Positions 5,448 through 34,329 of a DNA stretch of 47,964 nucleotides are shown piece by piece (the first letter of the stretch is position 1; every line of letters begins with the position of its first letter). The notes under the pieces were generated by a model, which saw only the letters and a list, made by a program, of their open reading frames with translations, made no database searches and was not told the DNA's origin. The translations under genes and the position numbers were made by a program. The DNA lies in the NCBI GenBank assembly GCA_002633005.1, contig NMRA01000377.1, forward strand, positions 388,657 to 436,620, written 5' to 3'. This DNA comes from Phoronis australis (Eukaryota; Animalia; Phoronida).

Positions 5448-8400
5448 GGGTGCGTTGTTTGGACCTGAAGCATTGAAATGTTTGTCAGCTGTGGGCAACT
5501 CAAGTCAAGATCAAGAACTGTTACAGAAATTGGGAATTTGCCAAGAGCTGCGCTTGATTTTGTTGAACTTAAAGAGCAAGGAGGTTCCTGGAGGACTGAC
5601 TCTTTGTCAAAGTTTAGTGAACCTTGATATGTCAAGTAATGAACTGACTTCTATTCCACATGGCATTTTTTCGCTGTCGCATCTAGAATCATTGAATTTG
5701 TCTCTCAACAAGCTTACAGAAATACCTTCTGACATAAAAGCACTGGCAGAATTGAAAGATGTTAACCTGTCTCACAATGAGAGATTAAGAGACATTACTT
5801 CAGTCTGTCAATGTATCAAACTGCAAAGGTTAGTGATACATGACATCCAGTTAGTGAATATTCCAGTTGAAGTAGTGAATTTAATAGAGCTGGAGGAGAT
5901 TGATTTATCGTGGAATAAGATCAGTGAATTTGGTTCACTGTTTACTTGTGCCAAACTGAGAAAGGTATCATTAATCTCTGACAAGTTGGAGAGTATTCCA
6001 GCCGAAGTAGGGAAGCTGAGTGAATTGGAAGAGATTGATTTATCAGAGAATGAGATCAGAGACTTTGATTCACTGGTTACTTGTGCCAAACTGAGAAAGG
6101 TATCATTACATCATAACAAGTTGGAGAGTATTCCAGCCGAAGTAGGGAAGCTGAGTGAATTGAAAGAGATTGATTTATCAAATAATCAGATCAGAAACTT
6201 TGATTCTCTGGTTACTTGTGCCAAACTGAGAAAGGTATCATTACACCATAACAAGTTGGAGAGTATTCCAGCCGAAGTAGGGAAGCTGAGTGAATTGGAA
6301 GAGATTGATTTATCAGAGAATGAGATCAGAGACTTTGATTCACTGGTTACTTGTGCCAAACTGAGAAAGGTATCATTACATCATAACAAGTTGGAGAGTA
6401 TTCCAGCCGAAGTAGGGAAGCTGAGTGAATTGAAAGAGATTGATTTATCAAATAATCAGATCAGAAACTTTGATTCTCTGGTTACTTGTGCCAAACTGAG
6501 AAAGGTATCATTACACCATAACAAGTTGGAGAGTATTCCAGCCGAAGTAGGGAAGCTGAGTGAATTGGAAGAGGTTGATTTATCAAGTAATCAGATCAGA
6601 GTCTTTGACTCACTGGTTACTTGTGCCAAACTGAGAAAGGTATCATTACACCATAACAAGTTGGAGAGTATTCCAGTCGAAGTAGGGAATCTGAGTGAAT
6701 TGGAAGAGATTGATTTATCATTTAATCAGATCAGAGACTTTGATTCTCTGGTTACTTGTGCCAAACTGAGAAAGGTATCATTACGTTTGAACATGTTGAG
6801 GAGTATTCCAGCTGAAGTAGGGAAGCTGAGTGAATTGGAAGAGATTGATTTATCTTGGAATGCGATCAGAGACTTTGATTCACTGGTTACTTGTGCCAAA
6901 CTGAGAAAGGTATCATTACATCATAACAAGTTGGGGAGTATTCCAGCCGAAGTAGGGAAGCTGAGTGAATTGGAAGAGGTTGATTTAATAAATAATCGGA
7001 TCAGCGACTTTGATTCACTGGTAAGTTGTGCCAAACTGAGAGTGGTGGTGCTGTGCAATAATCGTATCAATGTTATTCCACCCAGTATAGGGAATCTGAA
7101 GCAGCTTGAGCACCTTAAGCTGTCCAATGATGAGGTGAGAGGATTTGCTAGGTTGTGGAACATTTTCCATGATAAAACTGATGATACACGCAATGACATC
7201 TGTAGTCTCCCAGATGAAGTATGCCAGTTAAAGAAACTAAGAGTTCTTGACTTAACGAACAATTCATTACATCAACTTCCAATGCACATTGATCAGTGTG
7301 ATTCTCTTCAGGAGTTGAGCCTTGATGGTAACCCTTTAACAAGGCCACCTGTGGAAGTATGCAGAAGTGGTGTAAAGGACATATTCCAGTATTTCAAGGA
7401 TCTGCGACAAAGTGAAAGCAGGGTCAGAAAACAGCAGGTGGTCTTCCTGGGAGAGACCGGAGCTGGTAAAACTAGCTTGGCTAGAACATTGGTAAACAAT
7501 CAGTCATCTTTAGCTGATCCTACGGACCGCACTCGTGTCCTTGATCGATACGTTTTGAAAGTAAGCAATGATTTACAATTACAGATTACGGACTTTGGTG
7601 GCCACCATGTCTATGAGTTGGCTCATACATTCTTTTTGACGTCCGAAGTAATTGCTTCATTAGTTGTGGATTTGTCGCGGTATGATGACGACAACTACGT
7701 GAATTTCGCGGGTCGGTGGCTGGGTACATTAATGGCCATGTCATGGAAGTCTACTGTGATTGTTGTTGGAACTCACAGTGACTGTTGTGCTCAAGAGAAG
7801 ATTGAGAAAAACAAGAAGCTTTTGTTAGATCGCATCAAAGATCAACGTCGCAGGATGATCTCTGATGTTGAAGCGCAACGGGGAAGAATCATCTTGACAA
7901 TAAACCAGTATGATGACAAAACAAAGTTCCACGGTTACGTTCGATACCTTGAAGACATTCACAAGAGCAAGGAAAGGCACTTGAAATCACTGCAGTCAAA
8001 CTTCAATTTAATTGAGGACATTTTTGTGACGAGTTCACATTCTCTAGATGGTATTCCAGAATTCAAGTCTCAACTACTTACAGTTTGTGACAAAAAGGCA
8101 CCAACAATGCCTGATTCATGGCTGGCAATACAAGACATCATGGATGTGCAGAGTGATGAACCCTGCATAGAGCTCGAGAAATTCTATGAAATTGTGCGTC
8201 GAGGTTTCACTGTTCGTGAGTTGCCTACAGATGATATTCGGCACACTGCTGCAGTGTTACTTTCGTATCAACATCAGTGTGGTAATTACTTATGGTTTGG
8301 AGATGATGATCAGCTTAAAGGGTATGTCTTCCATCGACCTGATTTTGTTGTTGAGTTTTTGAAAGGCATTTTTCATCATAACATGGATAGTCAACTGGAT

Positions 8401-9154
8401 CAGAGTAATCAAAATTTTGACTTCACAACTTTCACCAACAAAGGTTTCAAGAAAGCAAAAGAGGATTTCTTGAAGTGTGGTCTCATTTCAACGGATCTTC
8501 TGCAGTGTCTCGTGAAGCGACATGTGAGCGATGAATCTTTGTTTGACACTTTGTTACATCTCCTGGAAAAATTCTGTCTATGTTTCCCTGTTCGCAAAAT
8601 AGACCATGGCATCATTCTTTGCTTTCCATGGTTCCTTGCCAATGACCAGCCTGACGAGATGAAAGTGAAGTGGCCAAAGAAGCCAGGCAAACATCAGTAC
8701 CAAATCGAGTTTCATTTCTCAAGGCAGTGTCCTGAAGCTTTCTTTGAGCTGGCCATTGTTAGGGTGCATCAGTGCTTTGGACCATTTTTGCGGGATGTTG
8801 TGACATGGAAAAATGGTGTTTACTTCCACAAAGGTCACGACAAGATAACGATGTCCAAAGTATGTGTTAATGACGATGTCATTCTACGACTCGCAGTGCG
8901 GGGTGAACAAGTTACTAAGTCGTTGTGGCCTAGTTTGATGAAAGCATACCACGCAGTTGTTGGTCTTTTAGTAAGTAAGTGGCCGGGAGCTTCGTATGAC
9001 ATCTTCTATGTTTGTCCTCATTGTCTATGCTCTGAAGTCGCTGAACCTACTTTGTATCCAGCACATGATCTGCAAAACTTTCTGTCTGATGAAGAATTCC
9101 TACCGTGTGACAACAGTGATGAAGGGGTTCTAAAAGTGGATGAGGTTGTACCAG
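5448..9154 (+). CDS. Large exon encoding LRR-ROC-COR (Roco GTPase, MFHAS1-like) of a spliced Roco-protease gene
   Basis: Acceptor ttttattttacag|G at 5447/5448 and donor CCAG|gtaata at 9154/9155. More than 20 LxxLxLxxN repeats. ROC motifs: G1 GETGAGKTS (7450-7476), G3 DFGG (7591-7602), G4 THSD (7771-7782), G5-like VTSS. COR-like segment (MPDSW, WKNGV) ending in CPHC. Confidence 0.93.
5854..7068 (+). repeat. Coding tandem repeat: about nine 135-bp units (45 aa, two LRRs each)
   Basis: The unit ESIPAEVGKLSELEEIDLSxNxIRDFDSLVTCAKLRKVSLHHNKL starts at 5989, 6124, 6259, 6394, 6529, 6664, 6799 and 6934, with a diverged first copy at 5854. Confidence 0.97.
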
Positions 9155-9899
9155 GTAATACACTAGTAAAGTCACTATTGATCAAGTTATCTAGTTAATG
9201 AAGAACTGACTTTGAAGTGTATGTACAGAAAAATATGGCCACCTGTTGCGATAAGTTCGGAGGACTTTAATTGGATGATTTAGAGCACCAATTGTAAGTG
9301 TCTTGACGATTCTATCTCAAAGTGGATGTAATTTCTGTGCTTGGAAAGACCTTAGAATTCTGGAGTTGGCTTGTCATGAAAGGCCATTATATTTGACAAA
9401 TTATATTGTCAAGGAAAAGTGAGCTGTCATTATATCCAAGTATAGAGGATCCTAACGAGTCTGTTTCATGAAAAGTGACTTAAATAATTTGTTCAAATTT
9501 TCACAGTAAACAACAGTTATGGATATAACACGAGTGTTAAGTATATTTCAGAAATAGTTATGTTGAGCATGAGACTAAATTTTTATCTTAAATCATTTTT
9601 CATAAAACAGATCTCAGTAGTATGGCAAAGGAAGTGGTTGAAATCAAAAGTCTAGTTTTAATCAAGTTGCTAAACTGTCAAGCAGTAAGATTTGGGTCGA
9701 GGGCTTACACAAAACATTTTTTCTGTGACTTGTGTGTGACCTTTGAGAAGTTCCAAATTCTCCCTCTTAATTCTCTAACTTTAATAATTTAGTAAAGGTC
9801 ATGAAGTTGTAAATATCTTGTAGCCTGTTTAAGAAATTAAACGCGTGTATCGACAAATTTAAATATGACCATGAACGTAAGGTTTTAATTTGTCTTCAG

Positions 9900-9970
9900 G
9901 TTCCTTTTCTGTACCAACTGAAGGACAGCTGTTTGAGGCACAGAAAGGTTTTGACATTTGTCAGCGAAAG
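9900..9970 (+). CDS. Roco-protease gene, linker exon (GSFSVPTEGQLFEAQKGFDICQRK)
   Basis: tgtcttcag| acceptor and AAG|gtaaga donor; phase 1 in, phase 0 out; open frame. Confidence 0.75.
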
Positions 9971-11890
9971 GTAAGAAGTAATTTAAACTGCACTAGTTTT
10001 TTATAAACGCTCTAGTTTCCTAGCCAATACTCGACCGTTTTAGGATTGATTTCCGATTCTAGTTTTCATGACTTGTAATGTTCGCTTCTTGTTTGATTTG
10101 TTTTTGCATTGTCCTACCTTGCAGTGTCGCACAAAGCAGGTCGAGATAACTTTTGGGCAGATAAAATTGAGTTCATAATTCTTCTTCTCAAGGTGTGTTA
10201 GATTACAGTTTGAAATCCTTAATGTGCCCGTCCCTGTTTGTATTTTAAAGACGGTATGTGGTGTGGTGAAATCATTGCACAATATTTTAAGTATCAGAAT
10301 TCCCATAATGTCCCTAATGTTTGTAAAGTTGTGTAGGAAGACATAATTCTGCGAACTTTTACCTCCACACGTAAATAACTTCTATTTCTACTAATGAATC
10401 AGTCAACCACTTAAAAATGTATGATAACATGCACCAGATTTGTGTTCCAACTCTCTCATTACATGCTGTATAGGTCAAAAGTGACAAAATGACCCGAAAT
10501 TCTCTGTCATAAGGGCTTAATTGGTGGAATTTATTGTAAAATTTATCGTGAGAGTAGTCTCATGACCGAGAATGAAGGGAAATGAACAGAAAGTTTGTAT
10601 GGTGGCTCGAAGTAAACAATTCTTTAATCAGATTTTTACCGCTTTTATGGTTATTACTATCATGACGGGGAAACGGTATTTTGTTTGATTAGTTTTGTCT
10701 TGCAGTGAGTGTACAACTGGTTATTATGTGCCCACATAATATTTATATGAGGTCGTATATTGCCATCATGTCTGTCTGGGCGTCCAGGCGTCTGGCATTC
10801 GGTGTCCGTAGTCGTATCTCCTAAACCCCTTAAAGGATCTTGATGAGATTTAGCAGATGTGTTTCTATGATACTAACGACAAATGACGACGAATTTCGGA
10901 CCTCTTCGACTACCGGTGTGCCCCTAGTGGCAATTTTAGTTTTTCATGCGTACCTCTGTATCTTCCTAGTCCTCAACGGATGTTCATAAAATTTGGCAGT
11001 TCGACATCTATTAAAGAGGTGGTGCCATCCTCCCATATTTCCGGATGGGTTCGAGGTACTTTGCGCCACCTAGTGGCCATTTTTATTGTTTTCAAGTCTG
11101 TTTTTTGGCATCAACCAAACCGCTCTATTGATGATTTTAAAATTTGGCTTATTATGTTCTTACTGTGAAGAGGGCAGCTGTCAATGATTTTCCGATGACT
11201 TCAATTACTGTGGTGCCTCCGAGTAGTAGTTTTGTTTGTTTTTGCACCCATGGCTGTATCTCTTAAATGCTATACAGGATCTTTAATGAATTTTGTTGGT
11301 GTATTTACATGAAGTTGACAACAGAGGACAACGAATATTCGACGTGTCAGGAGGGCTGAGGATGATTTTCCGACGACCTCGAGAACTGTGGTGCCGCCTA
11401 GTGACAGTTTTTTTCACGCCCATGACTTTATCTCTTACCCTCTGCAGTATCTTTATTATGCACCCACATATTTAGTTGTGGTCACATATTGCCGTTATCT
11501 CTGTCTAGGCGTCCGACGTCTGCGGCTGTATCTCCTAAACCCCTTGCAGGATCTCATTGAAATTTGGCACATGTGTTCCTGTGGGGATGATGACAGAGGG
11601 CGACGAGTTTCAGACCAACCTTAATACCACTGTGCCCCCTAGTGGCAATTTTAGTTTGCCTGTGTATCTTCAAAGGTCTTCAACTGATTTTCATGAAAGT
11701 TGGCACCTAAGCATCTTTTAATAAATTGATGCTATCCACCTGTTTTCGGTCAATTTTACTGTTTTCGAGTCCTTTTTTGGCATCTGCCCCTCTAATTAAT
11801 CAAACCAATCTAAGGATGATTGTGCAAAATGGCGTGTATGTTCTTACTATGAAAAGAATGGTTGATGATGATTTTCGAACATCGGTTACT

Positions 11891-12397
11891 CAGGGCTTGG
11901 AATTTTCCGCGGAAACGCGGATTTCCGCTATTTTCAAATCTGCTTTCCGCTTTTTTATAATATTTCCGCGTAAAAAAATCGGATTTGATATAAAATTTCC
12001 GCGGCAAATTCCTTTCTTACCGCGGCGTTGCAGACGAGGTTCACGTCGAAAAGCGGAAGTTGCTCTTTATGTTTCGGAGGAACGTAAATTGTCAACATTG
12101 CCGGGGCACCTGGGACAGCGTGGTGGGATTTTCAATGGCGTCTCGTGTTATTGTTAAGCACGGCGACAAATACTACCGCTCCGCAGCCAAAAATGTGTGG
12201 GTTGGGAGTGGACGGGCGAGCTAAAAGGACGCAGACGCATGCTACTGATGGTGGTAACGTTTTTTTTTTTTAGTCTTCCTGATTTTTGTCGGGGAAAGGT
12301 TCACATTGACCAATTCAAGGCTGGTTATCGGGCATGATTTGGGCCGTAAAAATTTCAAAGTTTCCGCGTTTTTTGTCATTGGTCATTCCAAGCCCTG
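11891..12397. mobile_element. Non-autonomous hAT-like MITE
   Basis: Perfect 13-bp TIRs CAGGGCTTGGAAT...ATTCCAAGCCCTG, flanking direct repeat GTTACT (11885-11890 and 12398-12403), and subterminal ttccgc repeats. Confidence 0.8.
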
Positions 12398-13253
12398 GTT
12401 ACTATGGCGCTTAGTGATGGCAGTTTTGTTTGTTTTTGCACCCATGGCGGTATCTCCTAAATGCTCTACAAGATCTGTTTTAAATTAAGCAATTGTATTT
12501 TTATGAAGTTGACAAAGGACGACGGTGACTGGTGTGCCCCCTGATGGCAATTTTAATTTGTTTTTTAATTTACTTCCGCATTAATCTGTATCTTCAAAGG
12601 TCCTCAACAGATTCTCATAAAATTTGGCAGATAGGCATCTATTAGTGTGTTGACGATATCCTCGGGTTTTCAGTTTGATTTGTGGTACTTTACTGCTTTT
12701 GAATCTTGTTATTTGGCGTCTTCCCCTCTGTCAACAGTTACCACTCTTAGGATGGTTGTGGAAATTGGCATGTATGCTCCTTAAAGGGGAAAAGGAAGTC
12801 TGATGATTTTCCGACCCCGTCATCTTCTGTGACGCCTCTTAGTGGTAGATGTTTTTAGCGCCTATAACCACCTAGTAGCAATTCCATTTTTTCCGTTTTG
12901 TTTGGTTTCTTAGAGGTTCCTTGATGGATTTTTATGAAATAGCCTTGATGTCACATACCTGTTTTTGGATGAATTCGGTGCATTTTGCTCCATGTAGTGG
13001 CCATTTTTATGTTCCAAATAAACACTCCTAGAAGCACACCATTTGCAGTGCATTCGTAGGCACATTTCAACACACCACATTGCTCTTGTTATCTTTAAAT
13101 GTGGTTGCACATTGATGTCATCCTTGGGTGTCCGGGTGTCGGTGTCTGCTATTGTATCGCTTAGACTCATTGGAAAATCTTTGGCATGTGTGCTGATATG
13201 AAGCTGATGACATGCTGTCGAATTTTCGAATTGACCTCCCATGTTCTGTAGTG

Positions 13254-15970
13254 ACAATTTTATTTTTTCGCACTTTCCGCTCTATCTTCCTAATTCTAGG
13301 ATGAATTTTCATGAAATTTGGCAGATAGGTTTCCATTATGAAGGCAACAACACCTTTCCATTTCCAGATGTTTTTGGTCATTCTGTGCCACCTAGCGGTC
13401 ATTTTTTTTAAAGTTTTCAATCTGGTTTTGATAAACCGCTTGAAGGACCATTATAAAAATTGAGGAGACTGCAGCTGACGTTCATTTTCGGATGTGTTCG
13501 ACAATTCTGGCACCCTCTAAATGTTTTTTGCGTCCTTAACCCTTCTCAAGAACACTTTGATGAAATTTGGCCGATGAGTTTAAGTCCATTCTGTTGATAA
13601 GTGTGCCGCCTAGTTGCAAAGTTATTATTACATTTTCTTGAGTTGTGTGTCTTCCCAATTCATGGATGTATTTGCATGAAAATTTGCAAATGAATCATTT
13701 CTATTTAAAGCTGGCAACAATGTCTTCCTATTGAGTAATTTTATCAGTTTTGAGTCCATTTTTGGCCTCAGCCTCTCAACTGCCAAATCATTTGAAAATT
13801 CATTGTGAAAATTGGCAGATGTGTTTCTGATGAGAAGGCCGCGACTGACATTGATATTCGAATAGACTCGACTACTTTAGCACCAGCTGGTGGCATTTTT
13901 GCACATGTGGGCTGTGTCTCGTTAACCCTCTGTAGGATCATTGTCAAATTTGGCGGATATGTTTCCATGGAGATGGCGTGTTATGATGAATTTCAGACCC
14001 TTTGTACTACCACTGTGCCAATAGTGGCAGTTTTAGTTTTTTTACTTTGGCCTCAGTATTTTCAGAGTTCATCGATGGATTTTTGTGAAATTCAGCAAGT
14101 ATAGCCTTCATTAAGGTGATGATCGTAGTCCTCCATTCCTTTATGGATTTGATGTACACCACGTAGTGGCTATTTTTGCATCTTGTTTTTGGCATCTGCC
14201 TCTTTATCCACTGAACTGCTTAATAAAGGATATTTAAAAAAAGCTTGAAAGATATGTGTTAGCGATGAAGACGTTGATTTTTGCATGAAAGTGACAACTG
14301 TGCCACCTCCTGATGGTGATTATGTCTTTTCTGCATCATTGGCTGTATCTTCTTGCTCCTTTTGAAGGATCTTTGGGAAATTATGCAAGTGTTTGATTTG
14401 ACCACCTGTGAAAAATCCTGCATCGAGTATTAAAGTCACGCAATAATTTCCCAGAAATTCGTCTCAATGGTTGTGGTGACTTTGAAACTTTAAATTGGCT
14501 ATACTATAATTGGCTATGACAGTGGTTATGACTTGGACGGTTCTCACTATGGCTGTACCCCCCAGTGGCAATTTTTGTTTTTGTATTTGCCTTTTTTTTT
14601 TTTTTTTTTTAANGACAATTTTATTTTTTCGCACTTTACGCTCTATCTTCCTAATTCTTGGATGAATTTTCATGAAATTTGGCAGATAGGCTTCCATTAT
14701 GAAGGCAACAACACCTTTCCATTTCCGGATGTGTTTGGTCATTCTGCGCCACCTAGCAGTCGTTTTTTTAAAGTTTTCAAGTCTGGTTTTGATAAACTGC
14801 TTGAAGGATCATTGTAAAAATTGAGGAGACAGCAGTTGACGTTCATTTTCGGATGTGTTCGACACTTCTGGCACCCTCTAATGTTTTTTGCATCCTTAAC
14901 CCTTCTCAAGAACACTTTGAAATTTGGCCAATGTGTTCCTGTGGACGATGAGTTTAAGTCCATTCTGTTGATTAGTGTGCCGCCTAGTTGCAAATTTATT
15001 ATTACATTTTCTAGAGTTGTGTGTCTTCCCAATTCATGGTTGTATTTGCATGAAAATTTGCAAATGAATAATTTCTATTTAAAGCTGGCAACAATGTCTC
15101 CCTATTGAGTTACTTTATCAGTTTTGAGTCCATTTTTGGCCTCAACCTCTCAACTGCCAAATCATTTGAAAATTCATTGTGAAAAGTGGCAGATGTGTTT
15201 CTGATGAGAAGGCCGCGACTGACATTGATATTCGAATAGACTCGACTACTTTAGCACCAGCTTGTGGCATTTTTGCACATGTGGGCTGTGTCTCGTTAAC
15301 CCTCTGTAGGATCATTGTCAAATTTGGCAGATATGTTTCTATGGAGATGACGTGTTATGATGAATTGCAGACCCTTTGTACTACCACTGTGCCAATAGTG
15401 GCAGTTTTTTTTTACTTTGGCCTCTGTATTTTCAGGGTTCATCAATGGATTTTTGTGAAATTCAGCAAGTATAGCCTTCATTAAGGTGATGATCGTAGTC
15501 CTCCATTCCTTTATGGATTCGATGTATTTGATATACACCACGTAGTGGCTATTTTTGCATCTTGTTTTTGGCATCTGCCTCTTTATCCACTGAACTGCTT
15601 AATAAAGGATATTTAAAAAAAGTTTGAAAGATATGTGTTGGCGATGAAAAGACGTTGATTTTTGCATGAAAGTGACAACTGCGGCACCTCCTGGTGGTGA
15701 TTTTGTCTTTTCTGCATCATTGGCTGTATCTTCTTGCTCCTCTTGAAGGATCTTTGGGAAATTATGCAAGTGTTCGATTTGACCACCTGTGAAAAATCCT
15801 GCATCGAGTATTAAAGTCGCGCAATAATTTCCCAGAAATTCGTTTCAACGATTGTGGTGACTTTGAAACTTTAAATTGGCTGTACTATAATTGTGGCTAT
15901 GACAGTGGTTATGACTTGGACGGTTCTCTTTATGGCTGTAACCCCCAGTGGCAATTTTTGTTTTTGTATT
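13254..15970. repeat. ~1.35-kb direct duplication joined at an N
   Basis: About 13254-14590 recurs at about 14614-15970 with scattered substitutions and small indels; the N is at 14613. Confidence 0.85.
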
Positions 15971-16296
15971 TGCCTTTGTATCTTCAGAGTTCTTTGGCAG
16001 TTTTGATTAAAATTTGACAAACCAGTTTGTGTTATGATGGCGATGGCATCTTTCCATTTAGGATGGATTTGACGTGTTCTGCATAACTTAGTGTTCATTT
16101 TTTGTTGCCAGTAAACACCCCTAGAAGCACACTGTGAGTGCATGCATTTCAACACTGTTCGTTGCCTAGGTCTGTTCTCTATCTCTGCTTACGATGGGAT
16201 TTTTATGAATTATGGATTGTATTCCAAATACGATACTTGTCATGCAGAAGTAATTTAGTGCTTATTGGTAAACTTTTTTTATCAATCGTGTTCTAG

Positions 16297-16369
16297 GTAA
16301 AGAAATGCTCCTCAGCAGAAGGTGGTACAATTCCTGGTTCTTCGAATATTGCTGGTACATCTACCTCAC
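16297..16369 (+). CDS. Roco-protease gene, linker exon (VKKCSSAEGGTIPGSSNIAGTSTS)
   Basis: ttctag| acceptor, phase 0 in. Donor C|gtttgt at 16370, with an alternative G|gtacat at 16355; both are phase 1. Confidence 0.6.
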
Positions 16370-17136: not shown

Positions 17137-17225
17137 ATGCTGTAAGTATGTCAAATCCATCGTTGTTAGGCAAAAGAAAATCTGCCGTTGACATGGACAC
17201 AGAAGCTGGTATTATTCCGCCTAAG
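17137..17225 (+). CDS. Roco-protease gene, linker exon (AVSMSNPSLLGKRKSAVDMDTEAGIIPPK)
   Basis: tttcag| acceptor and AAG|gtttgt donor; phase 1 in, phase 0 out. Confidence 0.65.
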
Positions 17226-18311: not shown

Positions 18312-18521
18312 CCACCACTGTTGGAGGAAAGTATGGACCAGCTCGACATGCTGGCAAGGATACATTGTCTGGACGTTTCCAGAACTGTTTGACCAAAGCT
18401 TACTCATCTGTTGCCAAGGTTACGTGGTCAAATGGCAAGATTGGGTCTGGATTTCGTGTAGGAACGCGTTACTTGATGACAAACTACCACGTAGTGCAAG
18501 AACCATCAGCCACTACTTTTG
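18312..18521 (+). CDS. Trypsin-like (FAM111-type) protease exon 1, carrying the catalytic His
   Basis: ttacag| acceptor and G|gttagt donor. Encodes SVAKV...GSGFRVGTRYLMTNYHVV; His codon at 18488-18490. Confidence 0.85.
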
Positions 18522-20872: not shown

Positions 20873-21177
20873 CTGAGGTTTTACATCGCCAGAAACAACG
20901 ATCCTGCCTATTCAACTTTGACAGAGCCTACCAGCCTGGAGATGAGGGAGACTACAGAGATTTTCGATTTACCCTGCTCCCCGTAGTTGCCTTTGACCCG
21001 AAATTAGACTACGCCATTTTGGAGATGGATGTTGACAGTGCAAACCCACCGCCAGAACCACTAACTATGTTTAAGAAGATAGTTGGTTATGAGAACATCT
21101 TCTTTGCAGGTCATCCAGGTGGACAGGCAAAGCTGGTGGACCCTGGGTGTAAAGTTGTCTATAAGACTGTGGCAGAG
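20873..21177 (+). CDS. Trypsin-like (FAM111-type) protease exon 2, carrying the catalytic Asp
   Basis: tttctatttcag| acceptor and GAG|gtttgt donor. Encodes KLDYAILEM (Asp codon at 21007-21009) and FAGHPGGQAKLVDPGC. Confidence 0.87.
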
Positions 21178-21644: not shown

Positions 21645-22874
21645 ATTTTATGCGCCCACATATTTATATGTTGACGCATTATGTCGTCATCTTCGTCTGT
21701 CCGGTGTCCAGTGTCTATTGCTTTATCTCCAAAACCCCTTGACGTATGTTCATGAAATTTTGCACATGTGTTCCTTCCGTGGATGGAACGGCATGAGCGA
21801 ACTTTCGGACGGATCCAACTACCGGTGTGCCCCCTAGTGACAAGTTTAATTTTCTATCTTTACCTCCGTATCTTCAAAAGTTCTTAGCAGATTTTCATAA
21901 AGTTTGGTATATAGGCACCTATTAGTGAGACGATGCTATCTTCCAGATTTCGGACAGATTCTACGTAGTTTGCGCCACCTAGTGGCCATTTTTACTGTTT
22001 TCGAGTTGTGTTTTTTGACGTCCACCGTTCTATCAACCAAACCGCTCAAAAGATTATTGTGAAAATTGGCATGTATGTTCTTGCTATGAAGAGGATGGCA
22101 GATGATGATTTTCTGCCGACTTCCACTGCTGTGACGCCTCCAAGTGCCAGTTTTGTTTTTTGCACCTATGACTGTATCTCCTAAACCTTTCACGGGATCT
22201 AGGATCTTTACTAAATTTAGTAGGTGTATTATATGATGTTAACAACGGACGACGACGACTTTCGGACAGATCAACTACTGGTGTGCCACCTAGTGGCAAC
22301 TTTATTTATTTACGCTTACCTCTATATCTTCAAAGGTCCTCGAGGTAGTTTCATGAAATTTGGCATACAGGTGTCTGTTAATGAGGCGACATATCTTTCT
22401 GTTTTCAGAGAGACTCGACCTAGTTTGTGCCGCCTAGTGGCCATTTTTATGCGCCCACATGTTTTTATCTTAACGCATTATGCCGTCATCTCCGTCCGTC
22501 CGTTTGTCCGTCCGGGCGGCGTCCGTCCGGCGTCCGCTGCTTTATCTCCAAAACCCTTTGACATTTGTTCATGAAATTTGGCACATATGTTCCATTCATG
22601 AATGGGACGGCATGTGCGAACTTTCGGATGGATCCGACTACCGGTGTTCCCCCTAGTGGCAATTTTAGTTTTTTACGCTTACCTTAGTATCTTTAAAAGT
22701 CCAGAACGGATTTTCATGAAATTTGGTATGTAGGCACTTATTAGTGAGATGACGCTATCCTCCCGTTTTCAGATGGATTCGACATAGTTTGCGCTTCCTA
22801 GTGGCCATTTTTAGTGTTTTCAAGTCTTTTTTGTGCGTCCACCCCTCTATCAACCAAACCGCTCAAAGAATGAT
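21645..22874 (+). mobile_element. DINE-1/HINE-like elements (two nested 5' ends)
   Basis: Subterminal motif ATGCGCCCACA at 21650 and 22449 after T runs, a (GTCC)n-like microsatellite at ~22490-22535, then the shared internal modules. Confidence 0.7.
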
Positions 22875-22875
22875 N

Positions 22876-23270
22876 GAAAAATTATAACTTAAAGGATACG
22901 TCTATCATACCATTTTATTCCACCACAACGACCTTGAAGAAAGTTCTGGGTCCTTCGGACAGAAGGATTGTTAGTTGTAATAACATTAGATTTTTATTTT
23001 TCAATAGTTCCACTCCATGGATCAAAAATACATTTATTCACAAGTTTTCTGTAAAATCAGATAATTATGCGTTTTTACTCAACTACTACGCAGACGCCGA
23101 AATTAAAGAAATATATAATCTCCCTTTTAATCTACCCATAAACCCTAATTTGTCAATGTTTAAATACTTTTTCATTCACAAAAGGATTTATACAAACAAA
23201 ATGTTAAAAATATTTGGTATTTCACAAACAGACCAATGTCCCTACTGTGGCGAAGTCCAGACTTTTCAGC
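22876..23270 (+). pseudogene. Non-LTR retrotransposon (L1/Tx1-like) ORF2 3' fragment
   Basis: FKYFFIHKRIYTNKMLKIFGISQTDQCPYCGEVQTFQH resembles the C-terminal zinc-knuckle region of LINE ORF2. It is cut off by the next element's TIR. Confidence 0.6.
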
Positions 23271-23271
23271 A

Positions 23272-26200
23272 TAGCGGGGAGGAAATATATGCAGATTTGC
23301 AAAAATTGGGCACTTTGTGACAAGTTTTTGAAGTTTGGTACAATGTTAGGTATAAGCAAAGGAAATTCAAAAAACACCGTAAACGAAGTGTGCTGGCCCC
23401 CTGGTGGTCGCTACCCGCAAAATTCAATATGGCCGCCGCCGAAATTGGAAATTGTCGTATCTCAGTAATTATTATCACTAAACCAAATTCTGATATCATA
23501 TTTTCATTACTTTTGGGGTACGGAGTTCATTNAAAACACCGCAAACAAAGTGTGCTGGCCCCCTGGTGGTCGCTACCCGCAAAATTCAATATGGCCGCCG
23601 CCGAAATTGAAAATTGGCGTATCTAGTAATTATTATCACTAAACCAAATTCTGATATCATATTTTCATTACTTTTGGGGTCCGGAGTTCATTTCTGGTGT
23701 TAGTTTTTATGTTTTGTGGCCAATTCCAATGCAAAATGATACTTTTAAGGCAAATGTCATTTACAAATAACTCAAATTTATGTTTGCCCTCACAGAAGTT
23801 AGTTTGCTTAATTAATGTCGTATATCGACATGATTCGCCGCACAAAATCCTAAAATTACCATTTTTCAAAACCAGATTTACACAAAATAGGACTTTGTCT
23901 AGCTGACAATGACAATACTTCTAGACTGAGATACATAGAAACATAGATAACAACTGAAGGAACACTGAGAATGGTCTACCAAATACTGCTTGCTGCTAGT
24001 TTGTATCACGAACTTATAAAGAAACCAGACATTGAGAAAGATGACATTTCAAGAGTCATTGCTGGTGCAGGCAACTTCACATTTGCACAATGTGGTACAC
24101 CGAAGTCCAGCTCGATGGCACTTACAATTGCCTTTGCAAGCAACAACACAGCCGCAGTGGAGAAGTAGGGAACACACACACCTGGCTAATATCTTCCAGA
24201 TCTGTCCATTATGGCACCCATTTTTTAGTTCTAGCATTCCATACCCAACCCCATTGACCTGGGTTTGGTATCTGGGTTTTTTGGCAAGCGACGTGCTTGG
24301 AGCGACTTGAACATCTTGGTGATGAAGCCCGTATTCGCTTTGGTACATCCCAGTTTGTCAATACCTTTCTTCAAATCAGTGAGTGTTCTGTTGGCGAAAG
24401 TAAAGGAGTTGGTTCTTGGGATGACGTCAGACTACAGTTCGGTAGCAATTTCAGTTTTGGTTTCAACATACCTTATGAATTAGGTTTGACCAATGTCGTT
24501 GCTGCTTAACGTACGTAGAGAAGCATGCATCCTCAAACTCATCAATTAATCTCAACACTTCTGGCTTTGAGAGCATAACCATTTCCGTCTCTCCTCGTTA
24601 GCCATAGAGTGTATTTGCCCCTTCAAGAACTTGATACTGTACTGTTGGCTCTAGTCAAGAGTCATCAAAGAAAACTTCCTGTCAATACGTTGAAAAACAA
24701 ATTCCCCCTTCCACGAAAGCTTTGTGCACTGAAGGGTGGGTCATATCTCTCAGGAAACAGGCAACCAGCGTGCGTGATTCATGTTTCCAAATGCAAAAAC
24801 CATGGACACATTTCTTCACAGGCTTCCGCACTCAATAGCCAATTTCCCAGCCTATGACCTCGAATGAAGCGTCAGTTAATGTGCAGGTAGTCTCTCATAA
24901 TTTTCTAGTAGCAAACTCTTGGAGCATTGCTGACTCGTTTTCCCACACATCAAAGCGTTCGTAAGGTCCATAGCCTTCATAACAGAACTCGTCGTATGCC
25001 TGTTTCTCTCACTCATTAAGCCAGACAAGCGTGATCTGGTATGCGTATCTGGTACGCTTGATATGTTTTCCACCCAGAAGAGATGATCCAACACCAGGAA
25101 TGAAGACATTGGCTATGGAGAACACGTGGTCTCGTCCAGATCCATCCAACAGTGTACCTCCACACTCTTGAGATGCCATTTCGATGTCGAACATGCCCAT
25201 GAAGCATACCACTTTTGATTCACCGACCTCATCAGGGTACATCTAATGACACCTTTTCTGCTGAGCATAGAAAAGACAGTTACCTTCTATGTCTGGAGCT
25301 TGACTAGGATTTACAAACTTTGGTGCCTTCTTGACCACAAGCATTGCGTGTTTCTGCATGGTCATTGTCAAGGCATTTTCATAGCAAATGGAAAAAAAAC
25401 AACTGTCGCCCTTGGCCTGATGTTTTCTGAAGGTTGGTAATGTGAAAAGAACCCAGAGTAGGTCACTGGAATCTTTTGTAGTTGTCCCTCATGTTCAGTA
25501 AAAACATTGTGCACATGAGTGAGCCATGCGTCATCAAGAATCTCTGCTCGGGCATTTTCAGTGAAGGAAGGTTTGGCTTTCCCATCTGGAGAAGGTTGGT
25601 GCGTGATATCTCCAACAAACTCACCAATGTACGGGAGAATGGCAAAGTCATCAGAAAGCTTGGTATTGGCGATATCAGCAGCATGCATCGTTAGGGGGGG
25701 GGGGGGGTNTTGTGTGATTGGGATGACTGGTTAGAGAAATGACAGTACCATGGAACTCAATGCGACGAGACTCATCAATATTATCAAGTGCGCCAGTGGT
25801 GAAAAATCCCCACTTGAAATTTGAAGGCATAACGACTGCATCTTCGGTAAACCGTTTTGACACTGATAGAGTAAGTTCCATTCTGATACGAATGGCACGT
25901 TCGTAAGAAACTGCATGGCATGCCTAACTCTTGAAAAGTTCCACTGATTCCCTTGTGAGGATAACTGGCAGGCAGCTTCAATCCCACATATAGCGGAAAG
26001 GGTGTCTCTTCTTTCGTTGATAGATGGTAGCTTGTTTTGCTAGCTTCGTTTGCGGCATTGCTGCATAACTGATGAGAGATAGTGCAAGCGATTTCATTCT
26101 GGCGCTTAGGTTCCGTTGGGTCTTCTGCCATTTTCTCCTCAATAGAGTTCGAACTCTGAAGTAAGACATCTAGAAGGGTCAGAAGAGGTTTCGGAACTGG

Positions 26201-27604
26201 CTCACTGGAACAGTTTGAATTCAATGACCCATTGAGTGGCACTTGTAGTAGAATACCTTCACGATGCAGGACACCAACTTCAGCAATCTTCTTAGCCTCG
26301 TCTTCCGTAACCTAGACATGTGCAGTCTCTGTCACAGCGGCGCTAACTTTGTTCTTATGAGAGATGTAAATATCTCCACCCATTGAGTATTCAGACCAAT
26401 CACACCTTAGCTTTTCTATAATATGTTCTTTGAATCTTTTGGGTGCACGTACACACCAATTCAATCAGAGTCCAGCTGCTCCAGCCGACGATCATGAAGC
26501 TTTCTCAACTCAGCAAGCTTGAAAGTGCAATGTCTGAACTTCACCAACGCTACTAGCTGAGCGATTACCAAAGGATCGTATTGCTGACTAACGTAAGTTT
26601 CCTTGGCATATGACGTTTGGGCTGTTCGAACATCGTTGTTCAGATTATAACATGATAAGTGATAATGGACATCACCAGCCTTAGGGTCAATAGCAGTGTT
26701 TAAAAGTACAAGAGTCACCCAGTTCTTGGATTCTGTAGCCTAGCTGTTCAGGTGTTTGCTACAGTTTTGACTTCTCGCTCTGTATATTTGTTCATGGTCT
26801 TCATCTTGAAACTTTTCACCGCAGGCGGCACTGCATATTGGTGCGATCCACCGTTTTTTCAGACTCGATTTCTTTTCACTATCAGAGATGTTCCTGGTCA
26901 TTTTTCCAATTCCCGCTGTATAATGTATGAGTGGAAGAGTCGTCGGCATCGGTTGTGGTATTTAGCTCCATTCTTTAGCAGTTTGTTTGCTATTCCTTAA
27001 CCATCACCCAGGCTCAACAAGTTCACTCTCATTGGTAAAGGTACACCATTGTCGGCAAAACGTTTCAAATTGTTTTCAGGGTTGGTACGCACTGTATTGA
27101 CCCTTCCTTTTATATAGGCATCGTAATTTTGTGTGAGATTGTTCTTGGCGAAGGCAACATAATGACCAGTTGGTGACCTTTCTTTTAGAAATTTTGAAGG
27201 GACTGTCGTCACTTATGTTGAGGTATTGTTATCAACCCAAATGGGCGGAGATATGTCTTAAATAAGTTAAAATAGGTAAAAATGATTACTAATTACCTTT
27301 TCAGGCATTATATTCGGCCTGATTCCAAGCAACAAAAATAATAGATGTAAGAGTGAAGCTCCCCGGGACCCAAAAATATTGAAAACATGGTTTTCAATAT
27401 GCTCTAGTGATAATAATAGCTGAAATACGCCAACTTCCATTTTCGGCGGCGGCCATATTGGATTTTGTGCGTAGCGGCCACCAGGGGGTTAGCATAGTTT
27501 GTTTGCGGTGTTTTTTTAGAAGTGTTTTACCTATCCCTAACATTATACCAATTTTCAAAAACTTGTCAGAAAGTGCGCGATTTTTATGAATTCCCTCTCC
27601 GCTA
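23272..27604 (-). mobile_element. Decayed DNA transposon with long TIRs, probably Academ-like
   Basis: Termini TAGCGG...CCGCTA with ~250-bp imperfect inverted repeats (23272-23530 vs ~27350-27604). Frameshifted minus-strand fragments include YHLSCY, ETPFPLYVGLKL, GALDNIDE..FHGT, MGMFDIEMA and a terminal CGC..CKGNCKC..GLRCTTLCKC cysteine cluster. Confidence 0.7.
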
Positions 27605-28750
27605 TTACGAAATTTAACAAGTGTATTTATATTATGTTAAAAACAGACGATGATGACTTGGACGGATCCGCCTACCAGTGTTCCCCTAGTGGCAATTTTA
27701 TTTTTTTACGTTTACCTCTGTATCTTCACTAGTCGTTAACAGATTTTCATGAAATTTACTATGTAGGCACCTATTAGTGCGATGACGCTATCGTCCCGTT
27801 TTGGGATGGATTCGACCTAGTTTGCGACACCCAGTGGCCATTTTTACTGTTTTTGAGTCTGTTTTTTGGCATCCACCCCTCTATCAACCAAACCGCTCTA
27901 ACTATGATTGTGAAAATTGGCATGTATGTTCTTACTATGAAGAGGACGGTTGACGCTAAATTTCCCTTGACTTTGATTACTGTGGCGCCTCCTAGTGGCA
28001 GTTTTTTTTTGCGCCCATGGCTGTATCTCGCAAACCGTTTGCAGGATCTTTACTAAATTTAGTAAGTGTATTTATGTGATGTTGACAACGAACGATGACG
28101 ACTTTAGGATGATTCTGACTACTGGTATGCCTCTAGTGGCAATTTTAATATTTTCATAGGTCTTCAGGTGTATACTTTTGTTACTTCGTGACTATGAAGG
28201 AAAAGTTCCAAGTAGAAATTTGTTTCTGGCATTCTAATGCTGTGCTAATCTCGTATGTTGGTAAATTTGTTTTTAATTCTATGTTTGTGTGGTGCTTTAA
28301 GCAACTGATGTATAGGATGTGCTTGTATTATGAAGATCACTCACATTTTGCCCCTAGCCTATTGAGGAGACAATGACCATGCCTTTCCATTTTGCAAAGT
28401 ATAACATATATATATGCCCTCTACTGGCCACTTTATGGTACCAATAAAGAACCCTAGAAGGATACCGTACACGGTGCAATTGTGGGCGCATTTCAACACT
28501 CTGCGTTGCTGTTGTTACTGTTTTCGAGTTATTTGGCATCCAACCGTCTTTCAACCAAGCCACTTTCATGGTAATTGAGAAAATTGGGATGTATGTTAAT
28601 ACTATGAAGCGGACATCTGACGTTGATTTTCCGACTACTTTGACTACTTTGGCACCTCCTAGTGGCAGTTTTTTGTGCTCATGGCTGTGTCTCCTAAATC
28701 GTTTGCAGGATCTTTGCTATGTTAAACTAGTCTATTTATGCATGCTATGA
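27605..28750 (+). mobile_element. HINE-like element continuation including a 3' end
   Basis: Same internal modules as upstream copies; 3' subterminal TGTGGGCGCAT at 28481-28491 followed by an imperfect hairpin. Confidence 0.65.
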
Positions 28751-28824
28751 ACATTCCCACTAAATAAAATTGGTTCTAACCCCGGTGGTTAAGGTAAACG
28801 GCGGGGTATGGAAAATTGAACTAG

Positions 28825-30441: not shown

Positions 30442-30459
30442 GTTCCTACAGTTTCTTGT

Positions 30460-30853
30460 TTTAGTGGATGTGTTCACGACATGTGTGATATTGACAACGG
30501 ATGACAACTTTCGGATGGATCTGACTTCTAGTGTGCCCCCTAGTGGCAATGTTAGTTTTTACATTTACCTCTGTGTCTTCAAAGGTCCTAAACAGATTTT
30601 CTGAAAATTTTGAATATAGGCATCTGTTGGTGAGATGACGCTATCCTCCTGTTTCCGGATGGAATAGAGGTATTTTGCGCCACCTTGTGGCCATTTTTGC
30701 TGTGTTTGAGTCTCCATGCCTTTCCATTTTGTAAAGTACAACATACTACATATATGCCCTCTACTGGCCACTTTATGGTACCAATAAACAACCCTAGAAG
30801 GATACCGTACACGGTGCAATTGTGGGCGCATTTCAACGCTCTGCGTTGCTCTT
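30460..30853 (+). mobile_element. HINE-like element 3' portion
   Basis: TGTGGGCGCAT (30821-30831) is the reverse complement of the 5' motif, followed by the perfect hairpin CAACGC-TCT-GCGTTG (30834-30848). Confidence 0.7.
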
Positions 30854-33290
30854 CCCGGGTGAGAATTTGACACGTTTGACACGCTCTAAAAACGTGGAGT
30901 ATTGGAACGCTCTAAAAACGTGTCGAACGTGTAAAACGTGGCGTGTCAAACGTGTAAAATGTAGCGTGTAAAACGTGTCAAGAACGTGTCAAAAACGTGT
31001 AATTTTCGTTCCAATACTCCACGTTTGACACGCTTAGCGTGTCAAACGTGGCGATAAGCGTGTAAAACGTGGCGATAGCGTGTCGAACGTGGCGTGCCAA
31101 AACGTGGCAAAAACGTGGCACTTTTGACACGCTAGCGTGTCAAACGTGGCGATAGCGTGTCGAATGTGGCTTGCCAAAACGTGGCAAAAACGTGGCACTT
31201 TTGACACCCTAGCGTGTCAAACGTGGCGCTTTTGACACGCTAGCCTGTAATCTGTGTCATTGCCATGGTAGCGACCCTACATTTAGCCTGAGGCCGTGTA
31301 CAAGCCATAATGTTCTTGTTTATAGCAGCTCACCATCCACCATGGGAATCCATACTGAAAGCAAATGTATAAAGGGATTTCTTCTTTAAGTTACAGTTTA
31401 TTGTTACTGTTGATGTAAATAATCCAAAATGTGATAATGATATAGAATCATTAAAAGGATAATGTAACTATCCAACTCTTACCACATACTGTTGTCACTA
31501 AATTTCATTTCATCTAGAATAACATTAACACAGAAATAAGAAAATGGTTCAACATACAAATTTGAAGTGCTTAAGCTGCTATATATATGCATATAAGTCT
31601 AAGCTTTTGAGTCAGGCCAGTTGCTTGAAAACAGTTTATGAAGTAAAGAACAGACGCACTTTGTAACATCTTTGAATTACCAAGAGTGATTCAACATTTG
31701 TCATAACATTGAGTTCATGTTGATTTTGCAGCCCAAACCTCTAAACACAATGTCTTATCCTCATTCAAGCTGACACAAAATGTGAGTTGATCCAATAACA
31801 ACAATATTATGAATTGATATACTACTGAAGATGAGAGGCGTTCCAACTTCATATATTAACTGCGTAGTCAACAGTTTCTACTGACTCTTGTTTTCTGTTA
31901 CAATCAAACTTACCTGTAAAAAGAAGGACCATTTGCAAGAAAAGTTTATCAAGCCAGTGTCAACCAGAGTATATACATACTAAACTTCTGTTAGAGCTGC
32001 ACCACACTCGAAAACCATACTTCATAAGTGCTCTCCTGAGAGGACTGCACTCTCTGACAGCTAAACCAACTCTAACTCAGTATTTGGATATTTCAATAGG
32101 CAGTGAAAACTTTTGTTGCAAACTCTTTGATGTTATTGAGGGAACATGTTTAATCATTCAAATTGGGTGATTACCTCCCAGTGGCCTTTTCAGAACTGCC
32201 AAGCCTATTTAAATTGTATCTTTATTGAAGAGTTCTATCATATTTTACACGTTTGACACCGTAGCGTGTCACATTTTACACGTTTGACACGCTAACGTGG
32301 CAAATTTTACACGTTTGACACGCTAGCGTGTCAAATTTTACACGTTTGACACGCTAACGTGGCAAATTTTACACGTTTGACACGCTAACGTGGCAAATTT
32401 TACACGTTTGACACGCTAACGTGGCAAATTTTACACGTTTGACACGCTAACGTGGCAAATTTTACACGTTTGACACGCTAACGTGGCAAATTTTACACGT
32501 TTGACACGCTAACGTGGCAAATTTTACACGTTTGACACGCTAACGTGGCAAATTTTACACGTTTGACACGCTAACGTGGCAAATTTTACACGTTTGACAC
32601 GCTAACGTGGCAAATTTTACACGTTTGACACGCTAACGTGGCAAATTTTACACGTTTGACACGCTAACGTGGCAAATTTTACACGTTTGACACGCTAACG
32701 TGGCAAATTTTACACGTTTGACACGCTAACGTGGCAAATTTTACACGTTTGACACGCTAACGTGGCAAATTTTACACGTTTGACACGCTAACGTGGCAAA
32801 TTTTACACGTTTGACACGCTAACGTGGCAAATTTTACACGTTTGACACGCTAACGTGGCAAATTTTACACGTTTGACACGCTAACGTGGCAAATTTTACA
32901 CGTTTGACACGCTAACGTGGCAAATTTTACACGTTTGACACGCTAACGTGGCAAATTTTACACGTTTGACACGCTAACGTGGCAAATTTTACACGTTTGA
33001 CACGCTAACGTGGCAAATTTTACACGTTTGACACGCTAACGTGGCAAATTTTACACGTTTGACACGTTAACGTGGCAAATTTTACACGTTTGACACGCTA
33101 ACGTGGCAAATTTTACACGTTTGACACGCTAACGTGGCAAATTTTACACGTTTGACACGCTAGCGTGTCATGTTTTTACACGTTTTACACGTTAACGTGG
33201 CAATTTTGACACGTATTACACGTTTTTTTACACGTCTGACACGTTTGACACGCTCAAAAGCGTGTCAAACGTGTAAAATTCTCACCCGGG
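30854..33290. mobile_element. Non-autonomous CACTA/EnSpm(CMC)-like element with subterminal repeats
   Basis: TIRs CCCGGGTGAGAATTT(G/T)ACACGTTTGACACGCT at both ends, TT on both flanks, and ACACGT/ACGTGG subterminal repeats in both orientations. No coding capacity seen. Confidence 0.75.
32243..33171. repeat. 31-bp satellite, about 30 near-identical copies
   Basis: Unit TTTTACACGTTTGACACGCTAACGTGGCAAA starting at 32243, 32274, 32305 and onward. Confidence 0.97.
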
Positions 33291-33990
33291 TTGTTTCCAT
33301 TTTCCTTTGCTTCTGTGAAGTTTCTTGACAGATTTTTATGAAATATGGTGAATAGTTTTCTATTAAAGAAGCAATAACATGTTCCCGTTTTTGTATGGAT
33401 TATACGTTATTGCGCCATCTAGTGGCCGTTGTTATGATACAAATAAACCCTTACAGCACACCATTTGCGATGCATTCGCGGGCGCAATTCGACCCTCTGC
33501 GTTGCTCTTGTTAATTTTATACCAGTATTGAAAGTTTGACATTTTATCAAACTTACACACAATACACTGCTAGCGTGACAGACTCGACATGTTCCCATTA
33601 CATGGTTGTCTGTTCTACTGGTAAGAATTAGCTGGTAGCCAATGCAACAGTCAAAAATAGGTCTCAGATATCGACCAATGTTCCGCTCTTGTCGTTATTA
33701 CTGTGAATGTGTGTTCAAATCTATGCAATTGTATTTGAAATAATCCATTTTTCCATGGTCTGGTACGCTTAATATCTACATTTTGTAATAAAAGTCAAAC
33801 TTCCCTCGCAAGCTATTTCAAATTAATAACTTTAGAACTTTCATTTTAATCAATCACTCAAGTGTTATAAAAGCAGATTAGTTTATTGTCTGAATTGAAT
33901 GCAGATGCAGCCTAAATATGTGTATGGTGGATACATGTCACTGATGCAATAAGGTTAAAAGTATATCGATGGTCATGTTATTTTTAACAG

Positions 33991-34329
33991 CACCATGAAG
34001 CGGTCAAGTGGTCTTACATGAACTTGGGAGTCGATGCATTTCCACATTTCTTGGACGAGCGCAGGGTTCTTTATCACGTGAGTGAGAAACTAATTGGAGG
34101 AAGTTCTGGATGTCCAGGACTGGTCAGCGATGGACAAGATAATGCTTGTGTGGCTGTGGTCAACACCTTCCAGTTTCCTGACGTTCCCCACCACTTAGTA
34201 GGCGTCGTCAATATCCCTAACGAATATATAGTGGAACAGGGTGTTCGCATCGAAGCCATCTATGGTGATTTGCATGACCGAAATCCTCGTCTTTGTGACG
34301 ACATATTTCCACATGGAATGCCCACCTGA
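33991..34329 (+). CDS. Trypsin-like (FAM111-type) protease terminal exon, carrying the catalytic Ser
   Basis: tttttaacag| acceptor, phase 0 matching the previous exon. Encodes GGSSGCP (Ser codon at 34105-34107) and EQGVRIEAIYGDL...DIF; TGA at 34327-34329. Confidence 0.87.
   Translation, partial: HHEAVKWSYMNLGVDAFPHFLDERRVLYHVSEKLIGGSSGCPGLVSDGQDNACVAVVNTFQFPDVPHHLVGVVNIPNEYIVEQGVRIEAIYGDLHDRNPRLCDDIFPHGMPT

Follow-up and report, generated by a model that had tools for sequence, protein, structure and literature searches.

Proteins that join leucine-rich repeats (LRRs), a Roc GTPase and a COR module to a protease are already known outside animals, and a 47,964-nucleotide stretch of the phoronid Phoronis australis (contig NMRA01000377.1; hereafter the window, whose coordinates are used throughout) very likely holds one spliced LRR-Roc-COR-protease gene (5448..34329, plus strand). 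Bacterial conflict proteins built of LRRs, an AP-GTPase (Roc) and COR carry at least 24 alternative effectors, including trypsin and caspase (PMC8195603), the gasdermin protease of Runella, purified as a Roc-COR-CHAT protein, cleaves gasdermin (bioRxiv 2021.06.07.447441), and the group-3 ROCOs of brown algae and SAR (stramenopiles, alveolates and Rhizaria) carry a C-terminal peptidase (IPR009003; PMC11378527). Vertebrate MFHAS1 consists of LRRs and RocCOR only (PMC6337361), and a review of FAM111 describes relatives devoid of ubiquitin-like domains (UBLs) in amphioxus and a soft coral, with no mention of LRRs, a GTPase or a fusion in the passages searched (PMC9798293).

The initial annotation of the window, made from its letters alone, knew of no characterised Roco with this effector. 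Uniqueness is not supported, since Roco-trypsin proteins are known in bacteria (PMC8195603) and in brown algae/SAR (PMC11378527), alongside Roc-COR-CHAT (bioRxiv 2021.06.07.447441); nor is the gene unique among animals, as the same layout is present in Branchiostoma gene models and Roc-COR-Trypsin_2 in bivalve models. What appears to be new, judging from the sequences, is an animal Roco with a FAM111-type protease, the Roco-protease design as such being known already in bacteria and brown algae. No animal or FAM111-type Roco-protease was found in the literature searched (PMC4104024 and PMC9334734 among it), subscription papers and Figure 2 of PMC11378527 (up to forty animal architectures) lying outside that search, and the accessible parts of the supplements of PMC11378527 and PMC8195603 (one file outside the search) gave no match.

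The phoronid gene resembles the bacterial AP-GTPase systems in placing a protease as effector behind a repeat sensor and Roc-COR, a likeness in presumed working only. It differs from these and from the Runella protein in being a spliced animal gene that codes for a FAM111-type serine protease instead of CHAT, with no substrate gene seen in the window, and its Roc-COR is of animal type, with ~21% identity to the cyanobacterial and the metagenomic sequence among six Roc-COR matches. The SAR group-3 ROCOs likewise unite a eukaryotic LRR-ROC-COR with a PA-clan peptidase, but belong to another kingdom, whereas the LRRs of the window lie in one large exon and its protease is FAM111-like. The LRR-Roc-COR order, the Roc-COR subgroup and 25-30% identity are shared with proteins annotated as 'MFHAS1 homolog' (Lingula XP_013379138.1; Branchiostoma XP_019641751.1, XP_078688182-5); those of Lingula, however, end in a CARD, and vertebrate MFHAS1 has no effector (PMC6337361). 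The Branchiostoma proteins, automatic annotations for which no study was found, display the identical LRR-Roc-COR-Trypsin_2 layout. With FAM111A and FAM111B (PDB 8S9K, 8S9L; PMC10920703, PMC9798293) the phoronid protein shares a Trypsin_2-type domain, its N-terminal helix, the triad, the GHP and E-x-G motifs and the C-terminal helix, but it lacks the PIP box and the UBL pair, has a Roco as its regulatory part and has not kept V347/V351. Marine invertebrate FAM111 relatives are also devoid of UBLs (PMC9798293).

Gene model and Roc-COR module

The eight plus-strand exons proposed in the initial annotation were reproduced: all 8 acceptors are AG, all 7 donors are GT, and the joined exons, read from 5449, give 1,613 codons with a sole stop at codon 1614, base 5448 being the last base of a codon begun upstream. 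The features are as follows, each with its basis.

5448..9154, plus strand: exon 1 (internal), ~23 LRRs, Roc, COR-A and COR-B, phase-1 donor; Pfam, RNA on 7100-9154, model of 7402-9153
5891..7041, plus strand: tandem LRR array of 135-base units; repeat analysis
7438..7782, plus strand: Roc GTPase, with G1 GETGAGKT at 7450-7473, G3 DFGG at 7591-7602 and the G4 GTHSD region at 7765-7782; Pfam, alignment
8110..9129, plus strand: COR-A (8110-8598), COR-B (8695-9129) and a CxxC motif (9013-9024); Pfam
9900..9970, plus strand: exon 2, linker; splice score, RNA bin depth fitting the 62-base share of the bin
16297..16369, plus strand: exon 3, linker; splice score, bin depth 5.39 in RNA library X4 versus 5.3 expected
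17137..17225, plus strand: exon 4, linker with a KRK basic cluster, its acceptor the lowest-scoring; splice score, RNA depth
17782..17830, plus strand: exon 5, linker; splice score, RNA depth
18312..18521, plus strand: exon 6, FAM111A alpha1-like helix at 18368-18406, catalytic His1389 at 18488-18490; profile, alignment
20873..21177, plus strand: exon 7, catalytic Asp1445 at 21007-21009, GHP motif at 21109-21117, thin RNA in libraries X2 and X4; profile, RNA depth
33991..34329, plus strand: exon 8, catalytic Ser1540 at 34105-34107, EQG motif, C-terminal helix, stop; profile, sequence

The protease motifs previously noticed in the last three exons (TNYHVV, LDYAIL, GSSG) were found at residues 1386, 1444 and 1538 of the spliced protein, with GHP at 1479. 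Exon 1 possesses a strong acceptor, so it is an internal exon by the model and the 5' end of the gene is missing; the model has no start codon, its first in-frame Met being residue 61 (at 5629), and neither an upstream exon nor a second protease exon was found by tblastn with 53 proteins or by a search with the model itself. A crude score devised for this analysis puts 14 of the 15 splice sites among the highest 10% of the AG/GT sites in 5000-34400; the weakest, the acceptor of exon 4, is in the top 24%. Unspliced, the frame of exon 1 would stop at 9198. The phase-1 donor of exon 1 matches the phase-1 acceptor of exon 6 and exons 2-5 sum to 282 bases, therefore errors in the linker as a block leave the frame intact; the exact edges of the four small linker exons were placed by splice scores and by RNA depth in 477-base bins, not by junction reads. 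An Rfam scan gave no match.

The assignment of exon 1 to the LRR-Roc-COR proteins was upheld. Pfam detected LRRs, Roc (46.4 bits, cut-off 27), COR-A (36.8, cut-off 35.3) and COR-B (33.4, cut-off 27), and the Roc motifs are intact (G1 GETGAGKTS, the switch-I Thr in DRT, G3 DFGG, G4 GTHSD), their columns being conserved in all 8 aligned rows. The top fold matches of an AlphaFold model of 7402-9153 (predicted local distance difference test, pLDDT, 78.8) are LRRK1, LRRK2 and the C. tepidum Roco. The closest Roc-COR sequences among the six matches are four Lingula proteins labelled MFHAS1 homolog, 25-27% identical, all four of which carry a C-terminal CARD. By its sequence, the Roc-COR GTPase module is intact-looking and belongs to the Roco proteins. 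Exon 1 ends exactly at the Roc-COR module boundary of the Lingula and amphioxus relatives, and the spliced protein does not fit the MFHAS1 plan without a catalytic effector, as the protease exons follow in frame. The domains expected from Pfam were thus recovered in part: LRR, Roc and COR exceeded their cut-offs, whereas Trypsin_2 stayed sub-threshold on exons 6 and 7 and gave nothing on exon 8.

Ahead of Roc, 23 LRR-type starts were counted. The tandem array consists of a 135-base unit equal to two LRRs, present in 8.5 copies with 91% matches, and is, by this repeat structure, a recent internal expansion. On the other side of Roc-COR lies a Ser/Gly-rich linker of ~110 residues, encoded by exons 2-5 together with the first part of exon 6. 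Order-promoting residues make up 19% of this linker (versus 35-37%), and it contains Phe/Leu/Met/Tyr sites and a KRK cluster. Pfam matched no UBL or PIP box on exons 1, 6, 7 and 8, the Ser/Gly-rich rest of 110 residues being outside the scan, and the spliced model, its N-terminus missing, has no hydrophobic segment above 1.49.

Protease domain

Exon 8 as a query retrieved 12 representatives. Nine of these carry Trypsin_2 with an E value of at most 0.01, and bivalves are named in 6 of the 10 clusters consulted for them. One match (P0015), a Cys-rich repeat protein, was spurious and was dropped. Out of the 1,585 segments in the six-frame translation of the window, the profile built from the 11 relatives selected three, namely exons 6, 7 and 8, in profile order, with 25.5, 43.0 and 81.7 bits, of which only the scores of exons 6 and 7 are independent because the relatives were collected with exon 8; shuffling the window 60 times yielded no score above 7.1 bits. 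The same relatives-only profile aligns across the junction of exons 7 and 8 without a gap and scores the spliced model at 161.5 bits, and at the level of sequence exons 6-8 form one colinear protease. His1389, Asp1445 and Ser1540 match all 13 other full-length rows, with His, Asp, Gly and Ser kept in all 14. Exon 7 as a query matched none of 33 longer candidates.

When the family profile (the three exon peptides included) was compared with the PDB, FAM111A came first (E 2.5e-22), well ahead of the second-ranked structure (E 1.7e-4), in support of the FAM111-type trypsin-like protease with an intact triad that had been proposed. With exons 7 and 8 as single queries, seven weak PDB matches (E no better than 0.15) to a cyclic dinucleotide synthase from bacteria were taken as chance. 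The suggested comparison of a predicted structure with the FAM111A protease held for a stand-in, the relative P0008 (30% identical), which, folded with the family alignment (pLDDT 82.8), returned FAM111A chains as Foldseek ranks 1-6 at ~20% identity to FAM111A; for the window's own protease the comparison is by profile. Family profile and stand-in fold both place the protease nearer to FAM111A than to the rest of the PA clan.

Transcription of the locus

Three stranded raw-read RNA libraries with the same species label (X2, X3, X4) were compared with the 3' half of exon 1 through exon 7 in 477-base depth bins at a 90% identity cut-off, and the gene is expressed in all three. The 3' half of exon 1 is covered on one strand, at a depth of 32-38 in X4 and 3-7 in X2 and X3. 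In X4 the bin 9008-9484 has a depth of 9.55, compared with 10.66 expected for RNA ending at 9154; therefore little of the RNA, if any, continues as far as the stop at 9198 or into a 3' untranslated region. For exons 2-5 the X4 bins imply a depth of 25-46, versus 35 for exon 1, and three repeat-free intron bins are at 0-0.16. Given the drop after exon 1, the depth of exons 2-5 and the empty introns, the RNA thus seems to leave exon 1 at its donor and to resume, no less abundant, with the linker exons. In X3, exons 1-7 are all at a depth of 4-16. A contig of 695 letters (X1) covers 8509-9151, with 52 letters left over.

Read-through after exon 1 or exon 2, such as transcripts ending behind the Roco exon would leave, is not seen in these depths. 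The Roco-protease fusion is supported both by the RNA depth pattern and by the equal layout of independent gene models, and it appears highly probable that all exons lie on one mRNA. The 24 loose read ends listed, of 1,391, are all in intronic repeats. Exon 7 (20873-21177), a protease exon, may vary strongly between alleles, or the Roco part may be common to paralogs.

Relatives in other animals

The search of the protease profile was restricted to proteins of 913-2,605 residues (3,288 candidates), and 8 of its 10 matches were rescanned. Roc, COR-A and Trypsin_2 together occur in six of the ten, one from Mercenaria, two from Saccostrea and three from Branchiostoma; the last three also carry LRRs and COR-B, that is, the layout of the window, with intact triads. 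The other four (three oyster models and one more) carry Trypsin_2 alone. The search across invertebrates that had been recommended thus produced three LRR-Roc-COR-Trypsin_2 models in Branchiostoma and three Roc-COR-Trypsin_2 models in bivalves, all of them automatic gene models. In the bivalve models (Mercenaria XP_053382036.1; Saccostrea XP_061182384.1, XP_061170562.1), as in the window gene, Roc-COR precedes a protease of this family whose triad is intact; unlike the window gene, they belong to a different Roc-COR subgroup, have large insertions in Roc and no Pfam match to LRR or COR-B, and stand apart in the trees.

In the Roc-COR tree, calculated without vertebrate MFHAS1, LRRK, DAPK or SAR sequences, the window gene forms a group (100/98) with the amphioxus protease-Rocos and the Lingula CARD-Rocos, to which the bivalve fusions do not belong; its neighbours are named 'MFHAS1 homolog' by automatic annotation. 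No SAR sequence turned up in the searches with Roc-COR, exon 8 or the protease profile. The approximately unbiased (AU) test rejected both a tree with all protease-bearing Roc-CORs forced together (p 0.014) and one with all fused proteases forced together (p 0.009), these groups having been named after the first trees were viewed and the samples being small. This indicates, from the sequences, at least two pairings of Roc-COR with the protease, or replacement of the effector. The window and amphioxus fusions group at 93/92, but long branches meet here and without amphioxus the window joins another row, so a shared origin of the two is neither shown nor rejected. The protease fills the slot where the Lingula relatives have a CARD, and the effector is therefore likely exchangeable, as far as domain order tells.

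Two queries of the ESM Atlas provided leads only: exon 8 gave protease-like clusters at 0.89-0.93, with Trypsin_2 on 26% of the first cluster, and P0036 gave scores of 0.81 or less, the first cluster (70 members) having Trypsin_2 in 100% and Roc in 26%. Among the long oyster models with the same protease (P0029-P0032), P0029 contains a P-loop-like stretch that is not Roc by Pfam yet clusters with the Saccostrea Roc-CORs, possibly a branch with a decayed GTPase. Three bivalve-type stand-alone proteases (P0007, P0012, P0013) possess N-terminal Gly/Cys motifs before long disordered tails, which we presume to hint at lipid anchoring.

Proposed function and alternative explanations

One spliced gene with LRRs, Roc-COR, a flexible linker of 110 residues and a FAM111-like protease may well encode a one-chain intracellular danger sensor, a prediction from analogy to which we give about an even chance. 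In such a protein the expanding LRR array would read a pathogen or stress ligand, the nucleotide cycle of Roc-COR would set monomer versus dimer, and two protease domains brought together would have their active site ordered as happens on dimerisation of FAM111A. The C. tepidum Roco is a dimer when empty or GDP-bound and a monomer with GTP (PMC5714945), the toxicity of MASL1 goes up on loss of GTP (PMC3995007), and FAM111A needs dimerisation via its first helix to cut substrates, not for autocleavage (PMC10920703); the simplest combination of the three would be a GTP-bound monomer that is off and a GDP-bound or empty dimer that is on. The substrates of the active protease would be unfolded linkers, either in death/defence proteins of the host or in proteins of an invader. 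Two elements of the initial annotation are doubtful in their original form. GTP-switched dimerisation as the switch-on step may have the reverse sign, the C. tepidum Roco being monomeric with GTP (PMC5714945), and autocleavage is unsuited as a read-out of the GTP switch, since that of FAM111A does not need the dimer (PMC10920703).

By analogy, an immune role is plausible, with circumstantial support from the LRR array, clustered variation (51 of the 104 pairwise differences among 7 LRR units sit in 6 columns beside the conserved Asn), the exchange of CARD and protease, and non-synonymous differences. A number of observations, however, weigh against the sensor proposed here. The p value of 0.011 for the clustering is post hoc, the columns having been picked after the table was viewed, and non-synonymous polymorphism (pN) is not above synonymous (pS) in any LRR column set. 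The Ser/Gly-rich linker may uncouple the GTPase from the protease. The likeness to FAM111A comes from the family profile and the stand-in P0008 and not from the window's own spliced protease, exons 7 and 8 singly found neither FAM111A nor another protease in the PDB, and the FAM111A dimer residues V347/V351 (numbered as in PMC10920703) align to Gln1353/Thr1357 in an ungapped register from the conserved S-V motif; on sequence, these polar positions would suit a protease that depends on Roc-COR to pair, but equally one whose activity is not gated by dimerisation. Stand-alone relatives of the protease with long disordered N-termini occur in bivalves, and ligand, substrate and immune induction are predicted only. 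As to the RNA, exon 8 and the LRRs lie outside the stretch covered, and the junctions named in the initial annotation, while depth fits splicing at 9154 and onto exons 2-5, are not among the 15 of 322 joints listed, all of which fall in the intronic repeat family. The ratio of exon 7 to exon 1 depth is 0.77 in X3 but 0.24 in X2 and 0.06 in X4. This shortfall tracks how large a share of the alleles is window-like at eight sites in exon 1 (0.53, 0.40 and 0.00, respectively) and, in these three libraries, fits diverged alleles or paralogs below the 90% cut-off; truncated or differently spliced forms are another possible account.

A broader and more doubtful proposition is that such proteins are unrecognised one-chain 'inflammasomes' of invertebrates, in which MFHAS1-type Rocos would swap a CARD and a FAM111-like protease, the two modules having been paired repeatedly in bilaterians, the nucleotide cycle would gate a dimer-dependent protease, the effector exon would be strongly allele-variable and FAM111 would ancestrally be an immune effector. 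The role of the Roco GTP cycle is still debated. If the danger-sensor reading is true, a protease from a dimer-dependent family would give a direct enzymatic read-out of the Roco monomer-dimer cycle, for which the amphioxus or bivalve proteins available from public databases could be used; the defence design of bacterial Roco-effector proteins would extend into animals, and this would hint that FAM111 proteases began as immune effectors, to which vertebrates later added the UBL and PIP parts.

Among the alternatives, the fusion may be real with the Roco serving as a restraining pro-domain or anchor, so that a trigger leads to self-cleavage of the linker and the freed protease acts elsewhere (e.g. 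in the nucleus), with no dimerisation driven by Roc-COR. We consider this unlikely. FAM111A does autocleave just ahead of its protease domain without the dimer (PMC10920703), and the length of the linker, its scarcity of order-promoting residues, its Phe/Leu/Met/Tyr sites and KRK cluster and the polar residues at the V347/V351 positions agree with such a scheme; cleavage of the linker is predicted only, however, the basic cluster is short, and FAM111A requires dimerisation for cutting other substrates (PMC10920703).

Slightly less probable again is a real fusion that serves housekeeping or the stress response (clearing of protein obstacles, quality control of vesicles or membranes) instead of immunity. 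The action of FAM111A at DNA-protein crosslinks (PMC10920703, PMC9798293) and the expression in 3/3 RNA libraries (tissue and treatment not given) would suit it, but the LRRs have recently expanded, CARD and protease are exchanged in one slot, identity to the nearest relatives is only 25-30%, the model is devoid of a UBL or PIP region, and 21 of the 26 exon-1 read differences listed are non-synonymous (a selection from the best-supported 40 of 819, which may include paralogs).

Least probable are two neighbouring genes or alternative ends (exon 1 joined to another last exon beside a separate protease gene with a disordered N-terminus, or exons 7-8 present in some alleles only), for which speak the lack of a junction read among the 15/322 joints listed, an intron 2 full of transcribed repeats, among which a last exon might escape notice, the presence of Met codons in exons 4-5, the nearly uncovered exon 7 in X4 and the stand-alone relatives in bivalves, and against which stand the matching depth and strand across exons 1-6 without read-through after exons 1 or 2, the compatible phases, the occurrence of this fusion in gene models of Branchiostoma and of bivalves, and an exon-7 shortfall that follows the window-like allele share (0.53, 0.40, 0.00 vs 0.77, 0.24, 0.06).

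Repeats and assembly features

The introns and the downstream region contain a dispersed repeat family, 65-85% alike (10721-12900, 21646-22883, 27585-28740, 30484-30853, 42204-42750), on which RNA reads reach 300-500 per bin, far above the gene. Head-to-tail duplications at 225-951 (99%), 13253-15977 (93%) and 23371-23692 (96%) are each split by a single N (588, 14613 and 23532, respectively); these are likely assembly joins of two haplotypes, and intron lengths may be inflated. Within intron 7, a sub-threshold zf-RVT match (22877-23317, E 6e-5) is likely a decayed retrotransposon without long terminal repeats (non-LTR). A GC-richer stretch on the minus strand (24049-26311) has broken frames, one of them Cys-rich, with no Pfam match of note, and is presumably akin to the remnant of a DNA transposon. 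Two satellites flank the last exon, one before it (32242-33222; 31-base unit, 31.6 copies, 97%) and one after the gene (35986-37166; 67-68-base units).

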